64,000 bases of DNA from a phage. The position numbers and the translations under genes were made by a program. The notes beneath the pieces were generated by a model, which saw only the letters and a list, made by a program, of their open reading frames with translations, was not told the origin of the DNA and ran no database searches. Of the stretch, positions 5,956 to 32,983 are shown piece after piece. Location of the stretch: the sequence record NC_094493.1. One strand, given 5' to 3'. Every line of letters starts with the position of its first letter. Position 1 is the first letter of the stretch.

Positions 5956-6306
5956 TTACTGCAACAGTTTTTCAATAGCCGCTTCCATGCTGCTTGCAAC
6001 AGCCTGAACTCGGATATTCATCTCTTCTTGGTGGATCAGCTCCTTAAGCTCTTTAATGGTAAATTCTTTAGAGAAACCTTCCACCATAATCTTGTGCAAG
6101 GCTTCTTGCGTGTCTACTTGCAAGAACTTTTCCAGTTTGTTGGCAGAGGCTTCTAAATCAGCCCGAATACGAGGGTCATCTGTGCGATTCAGCATTAGGC
6201 GTAAGCCATCAAGATTAGTAGAAATAGCATCTGCATGTTGAGTAACTAACCGTGGCAAAATGAGATCTACAAACTTATTAGCCAAATCGATACGTTCTTG
6301 TGTCAC
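5956..6306 (-). CDS. hypothetical protein
   Basis: 116-aa ORF; helical/charged; no motif recognised. Confidence 0.4.
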   Translation of the reverse strand: MTQERIDLANKFVDLILPRLVTQHADAISTNLDGLRLMLNRTDDPRIRADLEASANKLEKFLQVDTQEALHKIMVEGFSKEFTIKELKELIHQEEMNIRVQAVASSMEAAIEKLLQ

Positions 6307-6417
6307 TGTTGCACCCCCTCTTCATCTTCATGATGTTTCTTTTCACGCTTGTGTTTTTTCTTAAGCTCAAGCGCAATCTCTTTCTTGTACGCCTTCTTCA
6401 AGGCTTTTTTAGCCATT
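6304..6417 (-). CDS. small lysine-rich protein (below track size cut-off)
   Basis: 37 codons MAKKALKKAYKKEIALELKKKHKREKKHHEDEEGVQQ read on minus strand; ATG preceded by AGGAGGTG. Confidence 0.25.
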
Positions 6418-6445
6418 TGGCACCTCCTCTGCTTTCATTACGGCA

Positions 6446-23472: not shown

Positions 23473-24756
23473 TTATTCCAGCACCTCCCAAGTGTCTGGG
23501 TTAACATTTCGGACGCAGATACCGACAGGGAATTGGTAGTTGTTGTCTTCTGTCCTTGCTTGATATTTGAAGGTGACAAACTTGCCGATCATTTCCTGCA
23601 TTCTGTCATAGCTACGCTCCTCGTGCGTACCTTTCATCTTCATTTTAACAACAATACCTTCCTTGTCAACACAGATAAGAACACCTTCATCATTCTTATC
23701 TTTCTCAACGTCAATAACTTTCACCTCTGCGTCGTTGAACTTTTTCCATTTCAATGCTTCAGATGTTCTCTGACCGTACTCATATTTACCACAGAAGTTA
23801 CGCATAATGGTACCTTCATATCCTTCGGACATGAATATACCAACAGATTCTTCGCAATGATCAACTGTGTACGCAAGCTCTGCGTCAACAACCTTGATAT
23901 GGTCAAGCATCAGAGTGGTAACGGTATCCTCTGCATCCATAAGATCCTTGCAGCGTCCAGACTCTGTTTCGGGATCCCACCACACCTTGTCGCTAGGAAT
24001 ATCAAAAATGTGATACTCCAGATCGTAGCTACAGTACCCACCGTAACGCAAATCATCACGAACAGGCTCAACATCGACAGGAATATCTACCTTGTTGAAG
24101 TTTTTATATGTTGATAAGCCGGACTTAATTGCGGCATGACGGCGTTTTTTATCTGCCTCATAGTCTTTATCGATCTCGGCCTGAATCTCTTCCTGTGTGC
24201 GCCACCGTTTAGCAAGAGACACTATTTTCTGCAAAGGAAGACCATGAATGTATAGTTCCCCATCAAGTTGTTTAATCCCAGTGGTAGAATGGAAAGAACG
24301 AAGTTGCTCTAAAAGCTTTCCTTGAATAGGGTAGGACTTATTACCACGGGAAATAAATTTAGGCTCACCATTTTGGAAAACAACAAGCAGACGAAGGCCA
24401 TCTAACTTACGCAAGATCCAGCAAGGTAGTTTAAGTGCCTTGCCACGCTTCAGGTAGTCATGCACCAGCATGGGTAAAAGATCAACACCCTGCTCGCAAT
24501 CTTCCATGTTTTCAACATACCCCAGACGGACTTGTTTTTCCCACTTGCTGATAGCCTCAAGCTCGGCCTGTTGCTCAGCTGTAGTCTCATTGGCACGACC
24601 TACGTTCTTAGGTGTGCATACCGTCTCTTTGTACTGCAATTTACCGTCAAGCTTGCCAAACTCTACGATAACCTTTTCGCCATCAGTGAATACTTTCCAC
24701 TGTTGGTAGCTGCCATCTTTGTTCAGTGCGTACAGTGTTGTTTTGATTTGATGCAT
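23473..24756 (-). CDS. ATP-dependent DNA ligase
   Basis: 427 aa; nucleotidyltransferase motif I KLDGLR. Confidence 0.7.
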   Translation of the reverse strand: MHQIKTTLYALNKDGSYQQWKVFTDGEKVIVEFGKLDGKLQYKETVCTPKNVGRANETTAEQQAELEAISKWEKQVRLGYVENMEDCEQGVDLLPMLVHDYLKRGKALKLPCWILRKLDGLRLLVVFQNGEPKFISRGNKSYPIQGKLLEQLRSFHSTTGIKQLDGELYIHGLPLQKIVSLAKRWRTQEEIQAEIDKDYEADKKRRHAAIKSGLSTYKNFNKVDIPVDVEPVRDDLRYGGYCSYDLEYHIFDIPSDKVWWDPETESGRCKDLMDAEDTVTTLMLDHIKVVDAELAYTVDHCEESVGIFMSEGYEGTIMRNFCGKYEYGQRTSEALKWKKFNDAEVKVIDVEKDKNDEGVLICVDKEGIVVKMKMKGTHEERSYDRMQEMIGKFVTFKYQARTEDNNYQFPVGICVRNVNPDTWEVLE

Positions 24757-25025
24757 TACTCGGCCTCTTCCTTAAAAATTTTAAACATCTCTTCTTTACT
24801 CATTACCAACCAGTCTCCCATAAAGTCAACTAGCCAATCTCCCTGGTACAAGACAAGGTTACCAAAAGGCTCGACAAGCTCACACATGCGACGAAGATCT
24901 CTGGTCCGAACAGGTGACGATGTAAACACACCTGTATCAATCCACCGTTGCAGATCAGATACTGATGAAGAGCTTCCGTCAAACTGGTGGGCTTCTACAG
25001 GTTTAGCAAGATTAAATAACGGCAT
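24756..25025 (-). CDS. hypothetical protein
   Basis: 89-aa ORF coupled to ligase gene. Confidence 0.3.
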   Translation of the reverse strand: MPLFNLAKPVEAHQFDGSSSSVSDLQRWIDTGVFTSSPVRTRDLRRMCELVEPFGNLVLYQGDWLVDFMGDWLVMSKEEMFKIFKEEAE

Positions 25026-25320
25026 TGCAGTCCTCCTTCTGTAGTAGGTCTTTTATAGGATAAACAAGTAAGTGTGGATCGGAATAACGTATAGTCTTAT
25101 TCTGCCACACTATGAACTTTATTACAACCAAATTTACAATATCTTTATCACCATGTAGCCCAACACACACATTTGTCCATATTTTGTGGTTGAAGATCTT
25201 GCTATCGATGTAGATTTTAGTGTCAAACTTATCTTCCATTCTACCTATAAGTTTGATCAGCTCCTTCATCTGGTCGCCAAACACAGCATCTTTTTCAAGA
25301 TCTCTGGAATGCTTGTACAT
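25012..25320 (-). CDS. hypothetical protein
   Basis: 102-aa ORF; no motif recognised. Confidence 0.3.
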   Translation of the reverse strand: MYKHSRDLEKDAVFGDQMKELIKLIGRMEDKFDTKIYIDSKIFNHKIWTNVCVGLHGDKDIVNLVVIKFIVWQNKTIRYSDPHLLVYPIKDLLQKEDCNAVI

Positions 25321-25358: not shown

Positions 25359-25376
25359 AGCCGGGATTACCCGGCT
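25359..25376 (-). terminator. terminator-like hairpin (minus strand)
   Basis: gccggg-atta-cccggc stem-loop followed on minus strand by TTTACTTATT, downstream of 25383..26096. Confidence 0.4.
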
Positions 25377-25382
25377 ATGTTG

Positions 25383-26096
25383 TCAAATATACTCTGTTAC
25401 ATCCTTGAAGCTCGAAGGCTTCATGATCTTACCTTTACTGTCAAGGAATATGATAACTTTATTACCGTTGTAGAATTCTTCCTTAGCAACAAAACCTTCA
25501 TATCGACCATCAAAGCGTCGCTCAAGATCTTTAATCTCCAACTCGATGAGTTGTTCAGCAGGCATATCTGCACTGGCACCGTGTGAATACCGTAGATGGT
25601 TGACCCGTGCAAACTTGCTGTCATTCGATTTGAGAACCTTACGCATCATCCCGCACACATCGCCGCGAAGCTGGAACAGCAAAGCTGTTGACAACTCTGC
25701 TAAGCGGTAAGCAGACGCTCTTTGCTTAGAGGTGTTTTTCGCAGCGATCAGTGTATCATAGAACTCACCAATCTTGAACTTAATACCTCGTGGATTATCA
25801 AACAGGTTTGACCACTTTTCGTGATTGTCATTAACAAGATAAGCGGCATAACTTGTGACAACATGAAGATCGCAGGCCTCTTTTAGCAAGTGATCTCCAC
25901 CATCACCTTTCTCCAGCTCTTCCAAAACTTCATTGAACTCTTCCTCAATGAAGCTAAGCTGTAATTCGAATGGTGTGTATGATTTTTTCACCTTAGCTGC
26001 CACACGGTTCCAGTTTTCCACCCAGTTGGCAGACCAAAGGTAGTTTTCAGGCTGAGACAGTTTTTCCAGGTTGTCGATCAGTTTAGTATTCAGCAT
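25383..26096 (-). CDS. hypothetical protein, possibly MazG-like pyrophosphohydrolase
   Basis: 237 aa; acidic helix FIEEEFNEVLEELEKG reminiscent of MazG EExxE metal site; weak. Confidence 0.25.
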   Translation of the reverse strand: MLNTKLIDNLEKLSQPENYLWSANWVENWNRVAAKVKKSYTPFELQLSFIEEEFNEVLEELEKGDGGDHLLKEACDLHVVTSYAAYLVNDNHEKWSNLFDNPRGIKFKIGEFYDTLIAAKNTSKQRASAYRLAELSTALLFQLRGDVCGMMRKVLKSNDSKFARVNHLRYSHGASADMPAEQLIELEIKDLERRFDGRYEGFVAKEEFYNGNKVIIFLDSKGKIMKPSSFKDVTEYI

Positions 26097-26109
26097 TAAA
26101 GGTCTCCTT

Positions 26110-26871
26110 TTAAAGTTCCATAAAGTTTTCTACAGTTTCAATAAATACTTTATCAGAGAAAGCGTCAACAGCACCGTTAAACCATACAGGGATCCCGCGA
26201 TCCTCATATTGATAAAGGTCGCTACGTGAAATGCCACTTCCATCTGCACTCTGCGAATCATACTTGTTTACAATCAGCAGTTTTGTGCCTTTACAAGTAG
26301 CAGGAAACAATTCCCAGTTAAAATTAATAACTGTGTTAGAACAACCTACCAGGATAACCATATCATTGCTTGTGAGAGATGTCAACAGGTCATACATGTC
26401 TGTATACTTAGGAGCAACCTCACCGAAGAACACTACATTGGGCTTAACCCAGGTATACTTACCTGTATCTACCTCCGTGTATCCGATATTTTTAATTACA
26501 TCATTACCTTCAGCATCTTCGTAGGTGATTTCAGGCAAATACCCGTGGACATGTAAAATATCTTCATGTTTTACACCAGCACGCTCCAGCAAATCATCTA
26601 CATTGGTGGTAAGGTTGATCACACGACCAGACCAGCGGGAATACCACTCAGCGATCCGAAGATGTGCAAGGTTAGGATCAACACTGCCCAGAGCTACACG
26701 ACGTGCATTGTAAAAGTCATGCACCTTATAGTAGTTCTTGGCAAAGGTGTGGATGTTGCACACCTCATCTATGCTGAAATTCTCCCACATTGCAGTACTA
26801 CCAGATCGGAAAGTGGGAATACCAGATTCAGCGCTCAAACCAGCACCGGAGATAATAATCAGTCGTCGCAT
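26110..26871 (-). CDS. Sir2-family NAD-dependent protein
   Basis: 253 aa; sirtuin NAD-binding GAGLSAESGIPTFR, TTNVDDL and catalytic HG; no zinc-ribbon Cys pairs seen. Confidence 0.8.
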   Translation of the reverse strand: MRRLIIISGAGLSAESGIPTFRSGSTAMWENFSIDEVCNIHTFAKNYYKVHDFYNARRVALGSVDPNLAHLRIAEWYSRWSGRVINLTTNVDDLLERAGVKHEDILHVHGYLPEITYEDAEGNDVIKNIGYTEVDTGKYTWVKPNVVFFGEVAPKYTDMYDLLTSLTSNDMVILVGCSNTVINFNWELFPATCKGTKLLIVNKYDSQSADGSGISRSDLYQYEDRGIPVWFNGAVDAFSDKVFIETVENFMEL

Positions 26872-26879
26872 AAGTGCCC

Positions 26880-27230
26880 TCAGTAGATGTTTTGTTTAAT
26901 CTCTATTCCAAACTTTTTAAACGAGTCAGCTGCAAGCATGAATTTACGAGCCGCTGATGGATTAGAAGTATGTACGAAAATCTTCACGTTGTCAACCACG
27001 GGAGGCTTACCGAATACAAATTTTTCCTCCAACATGGATAGGCAATCGTATCCTTCGAATACTTCTCCTAGGTCGTTGTCCATATGCCACTCAGAAACGC
27101 GTCTGTAGAGCTTTCCCTTATCGTTAATAAAATCCATAAACTCGGAGGAATTCTTCAGCCAAACAGCGTCTGGGAGCCCGTAATTTGACGGATCTCTTAA
27201 GTCATCTAGCCACACAATCAACTTCTTCAT
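26880..27230 (-). CDS. small alpha/beta protein with receiver/flavodoxin-like acidic motifs
   Basis: 116 aa; LIVWLDDLRDP, HMDNDLGE, IFVHTSNP; ATGA-coupled to rnlA and 9 nt upstream of the Sir2 gene. Confidence 0.35.
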   Translation of the reverse strand: MKKLIVWLDDLRDPSNYGLPDAVWLKNSSEFMDFINDKGKLYRRVSEWHMDNDLGEVFEGYDCLSMLEEKFVFGKPPVVDNVKIFVHTSNPSAARKFMLAADSFKKFGIEIKQNIY

Positions 27231-28162
27231 TGCATATAGTTCTCGTTGTGGAAATAGTAATCAAGTATCTCACGGCGTTCCTGCTCCAGGAGGCAGTTCC
27301 ACACATCCTCTGTGTAATTGCTACGAATGAAGTTTACCATGCCGTAAAACTCTTCGTCAACACGTTTAAAGATATCATCATCCCAAATCTTCCAAGCTTT
27401 ACCCCTCATTACGGCCTTCCGTGCCAGATAGTATGGAGACTTGATCTTCAGCTGCAGATCATAAGGGTAGTAAGGCTTACGAATCATATACCCTTCACCT
27501 CTTGTTTCTGCAGCTAATTCTTTTGCATAGCTGAACGGAATTTCACGCACAGTGTGAGGACGTTTTGCACCAAGGTATTTGGCAATCCCATCTAAAGCTG
27601 CTTCTGGTAGCATTATTCCAGAATCATTATATCTGCAACCTATCAAATATGCGCCATGATCTTCCTGAACAATATGCGGATCTGAAGGGTGACAAATTTC
27701 AAACATGAATGTCATGTTTTCATTGCCCATAACCTTCTTGATAAGATCTAAATTACCACATTGCTCTTGGATGGTTTCCTTTGCAAGGTTACAATATGGA
27801 GAATCAAGAGACCCGGTTGTTGAGAACAATAGTTCACCTTTATGAGATGATACCACACCGAGGAATCCGTTCTTTTTCTCTACCGCAGTAACAAGTTTAC
27901 TGTCCGGTAGGTTGGTGGAGTTTTCTCCTAAGTTGAATACTTTTGTGAAAGGCCATGCCACAACATTCCCCTCATTGCCAACAACAATACCTCGGCACTC
28001 CAGTAAACGCGGAGACAAATGCCACAGATTGTTGTAGAATACTTTTCTGGCATATTTATAGATCTTTAATCCAAGATCTGGATAATACCGACTGGTTACA
28101 AGACCTTTGTCTACTAGGTCATCTGCATTAAAATACTTCATCATACGTTCCTCATTTGTCAT
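27227..28162 (-). CDS. rnlA: RNA ligase 1 (T4 RnlA-like)
   Basis: 311 aa; RLLECRGIVV...WPFTKVFNLGEN parallels T4 Rnl1 ALECRGIMF...FFNLNEN; motif I lysine in VEKKNG. Confidence 0.8.
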   Translation of the reverse strand: MTNEERMMKYFNADDLVDKGLVTSRYYPDLGLKIYKYARKVFYNNLWHLSPRLLECRGIVVGNEGNVVAWPFTKVFNLGENSTNLPDSKLVTAVEKKNGFLGVVSSHKGELLFSTTGSLDSPYCNLAKETIQEQCGNLDLIKKVMGNENMTFMFEICHPSDPHIVQEDHGAYLIGCRYNDSGIMLPEAALDGIAKYLGAKRPHTVREIPFSYAKELAAETRGEGYMIRKPYYPYDLQLKIKSPYYLARKAVMRGKAWKIWDDDIFKRVDEEFYGMVNFIRSNYTEDVWNCLLEQERREILDYYFHNENYMQ

Positions 28163-28205
28163 TTTGTCAGTCTATCCTGCCACACAAATAACCTAGTGTC
28201 AACAC

Positions 28206-28234
28206 TTGAAATTAACAAAACAGTTAGGTATACT
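28206..28234 (+). promoter_or_regulatory. sigma70-type promoter
   Basis: TTGAAA-17nt-TATACT upstream of kinase gene. Confidence 0.45.
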
Positions 28235-28262
28235 ATCATTAAAATTAAAACGGAGGGTTGCT

Positions 28263-28673
28263 ATGTCTAAAATGCTATATATCGTGCGTGGTCTGCCAGG
28301 GTCTGGCAAATCAACACTGGCAAATGCGCTATCTTTAGAAGGTCTGTATCCACATTTTGAGAACGACATGTTCTGGTATGACGATGACGGCAATTACAAC
28401 TGGGATGCAAGTAAAGTAACACTCGCAGCAAAATGGTGCAAAGATAACGTAGAAGATATGATGCGTATGGGATACGACCGTATCGTGGTAAGTAATACGT
28501 TTACAAAAGAAAAACATGTGCAGGAATATGTTGACATGGCAATCAGTCACGGGTATAGTTATACCGTGATCGTGGTTGAAAACCGCCACGGTAATAAAAG
28601 CATTCATGATGTTCCAGACAAGGTTGTGGATCGTATGGAACGCCAGCTTAAAAACTGCATTAAACTTAAATGA
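28263..28673 (+). CDS. P-loop kinase, polynucleotide 5'-kinase-like
   Basis: 136 aa from ATG after GGAGGG; Walker A RGLPGSGKST as in T4 Pnk kinase domain GCPGSGKST. Confidence 0.65.
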   Translation: MSKMLYIVRGLPGSGKSTLANALSLEGLYPHFENDMFWYDDDGNYNWDASKVTLAAKWCKDNVEDMMRMGYDRIVVSNTFTKEKHVQEYVDMAISHGYSYTVIVVENRHGNKSIHDVPDKVVDRMERQLKNCIKLK

Positions 28674-28680
28674 GGAATGT

Positions 28681-29235
28681 ATGAAATACTTTGTAACAAG
28701 CGACACACACTTTCTCCACCAGCGGGTCATGGAGTTTGATTCATGTCAAAAACACAGATCTCAGTATGATCACAATCTTGACAGTATGAATGCGGGAATC
28801 ATCACCAAGTGGAACTCTGTTGTGTCACCTGCAGACACTGTGTTTCACTTGGGAGATATTGCGTGCACTAATGATAAGAATATCAACAAATTGCTCCCAG
28901 ATGTTCTAAATATGTTGAACGGACATATTATTCTTGTTCGTGGTAACCATGACACAAGGACGACTGTCAGAATTATGAAAGAGTTCGGTCATGAGGTTGT
29001 AGATTATTACGAGCTTCGCCACAACAAGAATTTGATCTGTATGAGCCATTACCAGTTTGCAAAGTGGAACAGAAAGCCTCACGGATCAGTCCAACTGTTC
29101 GGTCATGCTCACGGAACCACACAGCAGTTGTTTGGCAGGCAGTTTGATGTCGGTTGGGATGTGTGGGGGAGACTCTTACCATTAGAAGAGGCATACCGTA
29201 TTGCAATGAGTCTTGCTATTGACAGCGGGGAGTAA
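28681..29235 (+). CDS. calcineurin-like metallophosphatase
   Basis: 184 aa from ATG 7 nt after kinase stop with GAGGA RBS; motifs SDTHF, GDIA, GNHD, GHAH. Confidence 0.75.
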   Translation: MKYFVTSDTHFLHQRVMEFDSCQKHRSQYDHNLDSMNAGIITKWNSVVSPADTVFHLGDIACTNDKNINKLLPDVLNMLNGHIILVRGNHDTRTTVRIMKEFGHEVVDYYELRHNKNLICMSHYQFAKWNRKPHGSVQLFGHAHGTTQQLFGRQFDVGWDVWGRLLPLEEAYRIAMSLAIDSGE

Positions 29236-32170: not shown

Positions 32171-32245
32171 GCCCTGTTAGCTTAGTGGATAAAGCAGCGG
32201 CCTTCTAAGCCGTTGACACTGGTTCGAGTCCAGTACGGGGTGCCA
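32171..32245 (+). tRNA. tRNA-Arg (anticodon TCT)
   Basis: cloverleaf drawn by hand: acceptor gccctgt/acggggt, anticodon loop cttctaa, T-loop ttcgagt, encoded CCA. Confidence 0.75.
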
Positions 32246-32249
32246 AATT

Positions 32250-32336
32250 GGGGAGTTATCCCGTAGAGGTAGCGGTGTAGACTGTAAATCTATTGTCATT
32301 GCGACTCGGGTGGTTCGACTCCACCACTCCCCACCA
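32250..32336 (+). tRNA. tRNA-Tyr (anticodon GTA), long variable arm
   Basis: acceptor ggggagt/actcccc, anticodon loop ctgtaaa, T-arm ggtgg-ttcgact-ccacc, CCA; 87 nt. Confidence 0.75.
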
Positions 32337-32450
32337 AATTTATATTTTTAGATGCATAAATAATACAGATAATGGCATTGATATTTATCGTCGTTTATAC
32401 TAGTCACTAACTGCTCGAAAATCAGTGTCATTATCAGTATAATTTATAAA

Positions 32451-32541
32451 GGAGGGTAGGGAGCAATGGTGCTCAAGCGGTCTTGAAAACCGTCCCGTTG
32501 AGGATGACTCGATGATGGTTCGATTCCATTACTCTCCGCCA
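32451..32541 (+). tRNA. tRNA-Ser (anticodon TGA), long variable arm
   Basis: acceptor ggagggt/actctcc, anticodon stem gcggt/accgt with loop cttgaaa, T-loop ttcgatt, CCA; about 91 nt. Confidence 0.7.
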
Positions 32542-32639
32542 CATTGTTGACCTTGTAATTAAGCGAAAGCCGGAAGCAGAACCGGATTATCAAATGTTAC
32601 AGTCGTCATCGCCGACTAGCAACATGGTCAACATACTGA

Positions 32640-32736
32640 GCTAGGTAAGCCCTTTGGCAAGGGCGAGGATTTTTAATCCTGAAAATAGACGAGGTAGTCG
32701 TTGAATACATAGGTGGTTCGATTCCATCACCTAGCA
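32640..32736 (+). tRNA. atypical tRNA-like gene (possible tRNA-Lys TTT variant, about 97 nt)
   Basis: acceptor gctaggt/acctagc, D-arm gccc...gggc, T-arm ggtgg-ttcgatt-ccatc; anticodon arm aggatttttaatcct ambiguous; about 30-nt extra arm; no CCA. Confidence 0.45.
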
Positions 32737-32743
32737 CCTTTTT

Positions 32744-32819
32744 GCTGATGTAGCACAATCGGTAGTGCAATTGATTTGTAATCAATAGGTTGTAGGTTCA
32801 AGTCCTGCCATCAGCACCA
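32744..32819 (+). tRNA. tRNA-Thr (anticodon TGT)
   Basis: acceptor gctgatg/catcagc, anticodon stem attga/tcaat with loop tttgtaa, T-loop ttcaagt, CCA. Confidence 0.75.
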
Positions 32820-32820
32820 A

Positions 32821-32895
32821 GGCCCTGTAGCTGGAAGGTTCAAGCAAGCGACTCATAATCGCCAGACGGTGGTTCAATTCCACCCAGGGCCACCA
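32821..32895 (+). tRNA. tRNA-Met/Ile2 (anticodon CAT), elongator-type
   Basis: acceptor ggccctg/cagggcc with paired 1-72, anticodon loop ctcataa, T-arm ggtgg-ttcaatt-ccacc, CCA. Confidence 0.7.
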
Positions 32896-32906
32896 AATAG
32901 TAAATA

Positions 32907-32983
32907 CTCCGCGTAGCTCAGCTTGGTAGAGCGCCTGATTTGGGATCAGGAGGTCGAGTGTTCGAATCACTCCGTGGAGACCA
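32907..32983 (+). tRNA. tRNA-Pro (anticodon TGG)
   Basis: acceptor ctccgcg/cgtggag, anticodon stem cctga/tcagg with loop tttggga, T-loop ttcgaat, CCA. Confidence 0.75.

Follow-up and report, generated by a model that had tools for sequence, protein, structure and literature searches.

Cleavage of tRNA is a common bacterial anti-phage strategy, employed by PrrC, RloC, PARIS, retron Eco7 and Cas13a, and RNA repair by phages is therefore a plausible general counter-measure. To our knowledge, T4 Pnkp/Rnl1 is the only phage RNA-repair system that has been studied in depth. A second type of system has been described computationally: the sirtuin-centered RNA-repair neighborhood type 2, "prototyped by Escherichia phage V5 and Proteus phage Mydo", which in phage V5 includes a MazG-like gene among its components (Iyer, Burroughs, Anantharaman and Aravind, 2022, Viruses 14:1977, PMC9503650, section 3.7.3). 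A jumbo-phage study by the same group (2021, PMC7824862) had defined the cREC domain and linked it to RNA ligases. Healing of RNA 3′ ends by metallophosphatases is already known from CthPnkp and lambda phosphatase, and the binuclear phosphatase of CthPnkp is proven to act on cyclic phosphate ends (PMC2190708). In Pseudomonas phage Adele, a putative polynucleotide 5′-kinase lacking a 3′-phosphatase domain was reported to adjoin an RNA ligase, and the nearby phosphoesterase was not connected to these two (phage Adele paper, 2025). Here we describe a locus in phage sequence NC_094493.1 (the window, that is, the whole 64,000-nt stretch of DNA analyzed), in which a predicted RNA ligase, a kinase and a metallophosphoesterase are neighbors. 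We favor the view that this locus is a module by which rV5-like phages heal and seal RNA (tRNA) ends, and our census of viral loci identifies the ligase-kinase-phosphoesterase triad, not the sirtuin, as its evolutionarily conserved core.

The triad and the region between its two arms are as follows.

27227..28162, minus strand: ligase, a predicted Rnl1-type ATP-dependent RNA ligase of 311 aa (PF09511, phrog_562; motifs ECRG, FNLGEN and KKNG)
28163..28262, no strand assigned: divergent intergenic region of 100 bp between the ligase and kinase starts, read from the sequence
28263..28673, plus strand: kinase, a stand-alone minimal Pnk-like P-loop kinase of 136 aa (GLPGSGKST; PF13671)
28681..29235, plus strand: phosphatase, a stand-alone binuclear metallophosphoesterase of 184 aa (DTHF, GDIA, GNHD and GHAH; PF12850, PF00149)

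This layout agrees with an earlier note on this DNA, which had described, from the sequence alone, a minus-strand ligase, a divergent Pnk-like kinase, a metallophosphatase starting 7 nt after the kinase stop and a tRNA cluster about 3 kb away. The kinase reading frame is open from 28206, and its likely start is the ATG at 28263, with GGAGG upstream. For the phosphatase, the likely start is the ATG at 28681; it lies exactly 7 nt past the kinase TGA, with GAGGA spanning the kinase stop. The 2.9-kb stretch around the locus is 99.8% identical to Escherichia phage phiWec189 (rV5-like, genus Vequintavirus) and 95-99% identical across 117 phage records, a range that takes in more than 110 rV5-like Vequintavirus genomes, and the window is ~97% identical to rV5-type genomes. 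Codon differences from phage Mangalyan, a 97%-identical relative, are mostly synonymous (synonymous to non-synonymous, 16:5 in the ligase, 3:0 in the kinase and 8:7 in the phosphatase), and the three are therefore working genes. About 18 records labeled "Campylobacter phage" share 98% identity with these rV5-like phages of E. coli, a sign that their host labels may be wrong.

The three genes also occur together in other viruses. We searched the six-frame open reading frames (ORFs) of 80 viral contigs (IMG/VR) carrying the ligase family with hidden Markov models of the families, grouped the ligases by 85% identity, which gave 53 clusters, taken as non-redundant loci, and counted neighbors within 3 kb. 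The phosphatase is found within this distance of the ligase in 46 of the 53 clusters (same strand in 45) and the kinase in 41 (same strand in 40), and both are present in 38. Look-ups starting from kinase or phosphatase homologs give the same picture. At least five gene orders occur, with phosphatase-ligase-kinase in 27 clusters, kinase-ligase-phosphatase in 8, several rarer ones, and the divergent rV5 layout in one; in locus L002, the kinase and Metallophos genes overlap. Furthermore, kinase and ligase are fused into single ORFs of 421-432 aa in two ligase clusters, comprising 13 loci (two cut by the contig end), with the kinase N-terminal and both domains full-length, as independently confirmed by Pfam. 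Together, the recurrence of the three genes in divergent viral loci and the kinase-ligase fusions support the functional linkage that the earlier note had proposed. At fusion loci L048-L052, L055-L058 and L061-L063 (e.g., L058:9527-10825), no phosphatase of the locus family lies nearby on the contigs.

All three proteins score above their Pfam cut-offs, the profile check that the earlier note had suggested, and profile and residue comparisons agree with its assignment of the ligase as Rnl1-type and the kinase as Pnk-type. The kinase matches PF13671 (AAA_33) with 42.5 bits (cut-off 27) and belongs to a large, tightly conserved family of ~130-aa stand-alone proteins with at least 7989 members at E ≤ 0.001, those in metagenomes numbering in the thousands. 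A phmmer search of the PDB with the single kinase sequence gave nothing meaningful; the family profile has full-length PDB matches to Pnkp1, T4 Pnk, O-phosphoseryl-tRNA kinase and CthPnk, and hhalign pairs the kinase with T4 PseT at 96% probability over the kinase domain. In both profile and fold the protein is nearest to polynucleotide- and tRNA-acting kinases, not nucleotide kinases, and structurally it is a polynucleotide kinase. The family invariants are R9, the P-loop, D35, C59, N78/T79 and an ENRH motif. Within the P-loop, K16/S17 align with T4 Pnk K15/S16, and the candidate general base D35, conserved in each of 36 family members, aligns with the general base of T4 Pnk, D35 (D38 in CthPnk). 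The protein consists of the kinase domain only, with no fused C-terminal HAD (DxDxT) 3′-phosphatase domain. Its GenBank labels vary from AAA family ATPase and nucleoside triphosphate hydrolase to 3′-phosphatase/5′-polynucleotide kinase.

The ligase matches PF09511 (RNA_lig_T4_1) with 55.5 bits (cut-off 28.3) and phrog_562 at 4e-66. Phage records that contain its family number 661, and their hosts include Escherichia, Pseudomonas, Vibrio, Streptomyces, Klebsiella and Acinetobacter. A single-sequence phmmer search of the PDB again gave nothing meaningful. The family profile (33 members) has T4 Rnl1 as its sole PDB match (2.6e-12, T4 residues 51-249), even at E = 10; a Trl1-like ligase was unsupported at the sequence level, Trl1 not being retrieved by this profile at the same threshold. 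The hhalign probability against T4 RnlA is 97.6%. The top Foldseek matches of the AF2 model (predicted local distance difference test score, 91.9) are all RNA ligases, namely Rnl3, Trl1-LIG and T4 Rnl1, at ~1e-11. We mapped onto the ligase 13 T4 Rnl1 residues that are functionally important according to Shuman-laboratory mutagenesis, with the T4 identities confirmed from the T4 record. Eleven of them are identical (R57, K74, F76, K96, G99, E155, E223, G224, K239, K241 and Y245). The ligase keeps the motif I KxxG lysine, the motif III Glu, the motif IV EG and the motif V KxK: K96/G99, E155, E223/G224 and K239/K241 align with T4 K99/G102, E159, E227/G228 and K240/K242 and are all family-invariant, and K96 in KKNG is the predicted adenylylation lysine. 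R57, K74 and F76 correspond to the Rnl1 N-terminal residues R54, K75 and F77 of T4, which are reportedly essential according to mutagenesis from the Shuman laboratory.

GenBank labels of the ligase in related records read "RNA ligase (and tail attachment protein)", and annotations such as "RNA ligase and tail fiber protein attachment catalyst" raise the idea that the protein mainly attaches tail fibers, as T4 gp63 does in its second activity. This label is simply a transfer from T4 gp63. The neighbors of the gene are of early or metabolic type, it is linked to end-healing enzymes, and its product retains all nucleotidyl-transfer residues; the kinase-ligase fusions and the fold ranking also oppose a tail-fiber role, to which we give almost no credence. 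In phage Mangalyan (L001), even the cREC gene at 6081-6431 is mislabeled "RNA ligase 1 and tail attachment protein".

The phosphatase, labeled phosphoesterase or metallophosphatase in GenBank, scores 28.5 bits against PF12850 (Metallophos_2; cut-off 27) and 27.8 bits against PF00149 (Metallophos; cut-off 21.5). All six metallophosphoesterase motifs (DxH, GD, GNH(D/E), H, GH and GHxH) are invariant across 38 homologs, the invariant residues being D8, H10, G58, D59, G88, N89, H90, H123, G141, H142 and H144. Most homologs end in a conserved C-terminal DHH motif, which the rV5-group proteins lack. In a search of the PDB with the family profile, the nearest solved relative by far is Aquifex aq_1665 (1xm7, 4.6e-27).

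Several observations weigh against reading these proteins as an RNA-repair system. Among the phosphatase relatives in the PDB, those that follow aq_1665 are the small-molecule diesterases GpdQ, YfcE, Rv0805 and MJ0936, along with the nuclease MPE, and neither lambda phosphatase nor CthPnkp is retrieved from the PDB by the family profile at E up to 0.1. By sequence, the phosphatase is thus placed in an uncharacterized aq_1665-like clade, outside the lambda/CthPnkp clade for which RNA end healing is proven; since it lies outside that clade, an RNA-end activity is not transferable to it by homology, and we only infer one. The earlier note's proposal that a binuclear-metal phosphatase replaces the HAD enzyme is accordingly correct for gene content, whereas its activity on RNA ends carries this qualification. 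The kinase has no equivalent of the acceptor-binding T4 Pnk R38 (CthPnk R41), three residues past the aspartate, the position being W38 here and F or Y in most members. Of the lid arginines of T4 Pnk, hhalign pairs R122 with the family-invariant R108 and R126 with K112, which is variable. In the ligase, N98 and T116, which do not vary within the family, stand in place of T4 D101 and K119, and the alignment to T4 stops at residue 248-249, leaving T4 250-374 unmatched and most of the C-terminal domain absent; the model has only ~65 aa of helices after motif V. The C-terminal domain of T4 Rnl1 (~120 aa, residues ~255-374) is the source of its tRNA specificity. The ligase reaches 38 bits against the T4 RnlA equivalog model (NCBIfam TIGR02308), whose cut-off is 242.25, and so falls outside that equivalog. 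Since its C-terminal domain is mostly absent and this score is so low, we assign the ligase to the Rnl1 family in the wide sense used by Pfam and, within it, to a distinct, shorter subfamily with two family-specific active-site substitutions. In 21 of the 53 clusters, a gene for an ATP-dependent DNA ligase is found no more than 3 kb from the ligase, which leaves some room for a role at DNA ends. Our literature searches found no experimental work on the module or its six proteins, and the kinase was named a "nucleotide kinase", not a polynucleotide kinase, by Iyer et al. (PMC9503650).

Two alternatives build on these points. In the first, the substrates of kinase and phosphatase are small molecules (such as NAD+/ADP-ribose metabolites or immune signals of the cyclic-nucleotide kind), and their link to the ligase reflects a shared anti-defense island. 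The phosphatase relatives after aq_1665 are indeed cyclic-nucleotide or phosphodiester hydrolases, the term used by Iyer et al. points the same way, and genes for NAD+ reconstitution (Adps/Pribosyltran, which is PRPP-synthetase-like, Namat/NAPRTase and Macro) are immediate neighbors of the kinase or ligase in several lineages (L003, L004, L007 and L091, the last being Pseudomonas phage Adele), with the kinase directly beside them. These neighbors make the region appear to behave as a counter-defense island in which RNA repair and NAD+ rescue occur together. The kinase-ligase fusions and the fold ranking oppose a small-molecule role for the two enzymes, however, and we regard it as very improbable. 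In the second, kinase and phosphatase serve an ATP-dependent DNA ligase, whose gene lies ~2.5 kb from the RNA ligase within the window, by healing 5′-OH/3′-phosphate DNA breaks in replication or repair. T4 Pnk acts on both DNA and RNA, and the phosphatase has matches to the ligase-associated nucleases PdeM and MPE. These matches are weak and far under the cut-offs, however, the constant partner and fusion partner of the kinase is an Rnl1-type RNA ligase rather than a DNA ligase, and the fold ranking again disagrees; we see hardly any likelihood of a DNA-end role.

For the RNA end-healing and sealing module that we favor, we infer the enzymatic activities, the RNA substrates, a counter-defense role and a connection to the tRNA genes close by. 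Metal-independent RNases of the host, for example anticodon nucleases and HEPN-type effectors, would leave ends bearing a 2′,3′-cyclic phosphate and a 5′-OH. The kinase would phosphorylate the 5′-OH through P-loop residues K16/S17, with D35 as general base, and the metallophosphoesterase would remove the 2′,3′-cyclic or 3′-phosphate to give a 3′-OH. The ligase, adenylylated on K96, would then pass AMP to the 5′-phosphate and seal the break. This scheme resembles those of T4 Pnkp/Rnl1 and bacterial Pnkp. In an accessory branch, ring opening by cREC would convert the cyclic phosphate into a 2′-phosphate, which Sir2 would remove in a KptA/Tpt1-like manner.

The genes of this accessory branch follow the ligase on the minus strand.

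26880..27230, minus strand: cREC (cyclic-phosphate-processing receiver domain) protein of 116 aa (PF20274 cREC_REC, E = 1.5e-14)
26110..26871, minus strand: Sir2-family (sirtuin) protein of 253 aa (PF02146, 7e-28; phrog_2162)
25383..26096, minus strand: MazG-like nucleotide pyrophosphohydrolase homolog of 237 aa, the final gene of the minus-strand run (phrog_671, 5e-22)

The earlier note overlooked these three genes: in this phage its "complete toolkit" comprises more than three genes, with cREC, Sir2 and the MazG-like gene in the same run as the ligase. The genes are closely packed, with the cREC ATG overlapping the ligase TGA as ATGA, as read from the sequence, and the Sir2 start 8 nt past the cREC stop. 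Sir2 keeps the GAGxSxxSGIPxFR and HG motifs and has no CxxC pairs, so that the usual sirtuin zinc module seems to be absent, and it scores under every NCBIfam CobB cut-off. An origin of Sir2 from host defense is unsupported, there being no PADLOC defense-Sir2 match.

This arrangement invites a yeast-like, NAD+-dependent route as the main one. In that route, the cyclic phosphate would be turned into a 2′-phosphate by cREC or the metallophosphoesterase, the kinase would phosphorylate the 5′ end, the ligase would seal the break with a 2′-phosphate left at the junction, and Sir2 would remove it with NAD+ as KptA/Tpt1 does. Such a route is a published proposal, with a KptA-like sirtuin and with the MazG-like enzyme and the metallophosphoesterase clearing ADP-ribose cyclic phosphate (Iyer et al., 2022; PMC9503650). 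It is consistent with the tight packing of ligase, cREC and Sir2, with the co-directional occurrence of the same set in L009, L011, L014, L016, L018, L020 and L064, with the atypical nature of Sir2, and with Foldseek scores of Trl1 ligase domains that equal those of T4 Rnl1. At the sequence level, however, the ligase family matches T4 Rnl1 and not Trl1, and we know of no sirtuin that removes RNA 2′-phosphate. Moreover, cREC, Sir2 and the MazG-like gene, the last of which accompanies the other two in relatives, are found with the ligase in only 6, 7 and 9 of the 53 clusters, respectively, which are those of the ~145-kb genomes nearest the window. Relaxed thresholds (E = 1) yielded no further Sir2 and two weak extra cREC matches, in L044 (2.8e-5) and L076 (0.041), so loci with the triad only are essentially without Sir2 and cREC. 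Because they occur in so few clusters, Sir2 and cREC look like lineage-specific additions to a triad that is sufficient elsewhere, and we consider the yeast-like route unlikely to be the main one here. Instead, cREC, Sir2 and the MazG-like protein probably add an NAD+-linked end-processing branch to the module in the rV5 lineage, one that handles 2′-phosphate ends in the manner proposed by Iyer et al. A more far-reaching proposal, of which we are doubtful, is that the triad is an autonomous, very widespread minimal RNA-repair cassette of Proteobacteria and Actinobacteria phages, with the aq_1665-type enzyme as sole 3′ healer, to which the rV5 lineage added a cREC/zinc-less-sirtuin NAD+ branch dealing with 2′-phosphate.

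The related loci contain further genes around the triad. In L009, Metallophos, HNH, Rnl1, cREC, AAA_33, SIR2 and DNA ligase genes lie on one strand, and L007 is similar. An HNH/NUMOD4 homing-endonuclease gene between phosphatase and ligase (L007:7563-8096, L009:1886-2449 and L011:9369-10010) indicates that the module tolerates mobile-element insertion. On the Pakpunavirus-like contigs L019, L024, L025, L027, L032, L034 and L040, a conserved 138-aa ORF lies between ligase and kinase and a conserved 73-aa ORF between phosphatase and ligase (e.g., L024:10918-11334 and L024:9594-9815, respectively), and both may be further module components. In one viral lineage, a 135-aa ORF with a DYDNT motif (DxDxT-like, HAD-type) between metallophosphoesterase and ligase (L046:6535-6942) could be a second, HAD-type phosphatase in the module. 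A Pfam scan gave no match for the 138-aa, 73-aa and 135-aa ORFs, nor for a 414-aa protein of L002. Finally, a 273-aa ORF in L004 (5187-6008), L005 (3814-4635) and L006 (3814-4635) matches the middle of the metallophosphoesterase (GD motif region) with its first 29 residues, and the remainder is ligase without its N terminus; it is apparently a deletion chimera of phosphatase and ligase and may be non-functional.

Expression signals of the locus were sought between 25.0 and 30.4 kb. The ligase-kinase intergenic region contains the GGAGG ribosome-binding site together with a promoter-like TTGAAA-17-TATACT (28206-28234, plus strand), and one hairpin borders the minus-strand run:

25359..25376, minus strand: GC-rich hairpin just 3′ of the MazG-like stop, with a weak T-tail (terminator scan)

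This hairpin may be the end of the minus-strand transcription unit. Since the promoter scan of this interval found 16 candidates against 13.7 expected from shuffled sequence, with no excess, the TTGAAA-17-TATACT element and the operon boundaries are suggestive only; terminator counts in the same interval were likewise no higher than chance. Among other scans, Pfam gave no match for the window ORFs 24756-25025 and 25012-25320, NCBIfam models gave only matches far under threshold for the locus proteins, and PADLOC gave no defense-system match for the ligase, phosphatase, cREC, Sir2 and MazG-like proteins and only weak P-loop matches for the kinase.

The tRNA genes of the window are given for context.

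32171..32983, plus strand: tRNA cluster of seven genes (ARAGORN, Rfam), 2.9 kb downstream of the phosphatase end

Within it, 32640-32738 (plus strand) is an unusual 99-nt tRNA that ARAGORN leaves unassigned with a 4-base anticodon and that scores only 35.5 bits against Rfam tRNA. The gene is annotated as tRNA-Lys in phage Mangalyan, and its anticodon loop can be read as UUUUUAA, giving the anticodon UUU (Lys); the extra arm of ~30 nt has a predicted 5-bp stem, and the whole cloverleaf has z = -3.7. A class-II-like tRNA-Lys(UUU) is odd. Since tRNA-Lys(UUU) is the target of both PrrC and PARIS, this tRNA may be a nuclease-resistant substitute.

The value of the locus lies in its being a good biochemical target rather than in discovery. 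Biochemistry on its distinct parts, namely the ~130-aa kinase family, the aq_1665 clade, cREC and the atypical sirtuin, could define new RNA end-healing enzymes, and the module is a place to ask whether a sirtuin can replace Tpt1. If it can, Sir2 would be the first RNA 2′-phosphotransferase among the sirtuins, a part of the scheme already proposed in print. Furthermore, rV5-like phages are used in phage therapy and biocontrol, which gives practical value to learning which defenses they escape.

Compared with known systems, the rV5 locus shares with T4 PseT and gp63, which counter PrrC, the Rnl1-type nucleotidyl-transfer residues, the Pnk fold, the P-loop and an Asp35 equivalent, and the genes are clustered in both genomes, pseT and rnlA lying ~1.4 kb apart in T4. 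Whereas T4 Pnkp has a fused HAD phosphatase, the rV5 locus has a 136-aa stand-alone kinase, with 3′ healing assigned to a separate metallophosphoesterase, and its ligase is 63 aa shorter than T4 Rnl1, with no match to T4 250-374 and with N98/T116 in place of D101/K119. In the Pnkp-Hen1 system, Clostridium thermocellum Pnkp combines kinase, binuclear metallophosphoesterase and ligase in one polypeptide; the rV5 locus distributes them over three proteins, its ligase is Rnl1-type and not a Pnkp ligase module, its phosphoesterase falls into another clade, and the genes between 23.4 and 30.9 kb include no Hen1 methyltransferase. The fungal and plant Trl1 and Tpt1 pathway offers a comparable ligase fold (Foldseek E ~1e-11 to 1e-9), a likeness extended by the kinase-ligase fusions of related phages and by the NAD+-using Sir2 and predicted cyclic phosphodiesterase cREC beside the ligase. 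It differs in that there is no sequence-level match, the kinase precedes the ligase in the phage fusions, and 2H phosphoesterase and Tpt1/KptA are lacking.

The closest correspondence is with the type 2 neighborhood of Iyer et al. (2022), which is this very locus in this phage group: all six components (sirtuin, T4-like tRNA ligase, cREC, kinase, MazG-like protein and calcineurin-like phosphoesterase) are found in the window at 25383-29235. The rV5 module is thus already known as a computational prediction, its neighborhood having been described (PMC9503650) and its genes annotated in GenBank. That description is centered on the sirtuin, with the phosphoesterase "occasionally" present, whereas our census, centered on the ligase, finds the phosphoesterase in 46/53 clusters, the kinase in 41/53, the sirtuin in 7/53 and cREC in 6/53. 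To this picture our analysis adds the triad as the core, a kinase of the polynucleotide kinase type that is sometimes fused to the ligase, the placement of the phosphoesterase in the aq_1665 clade, and a shortened Rnl1 subfamily.

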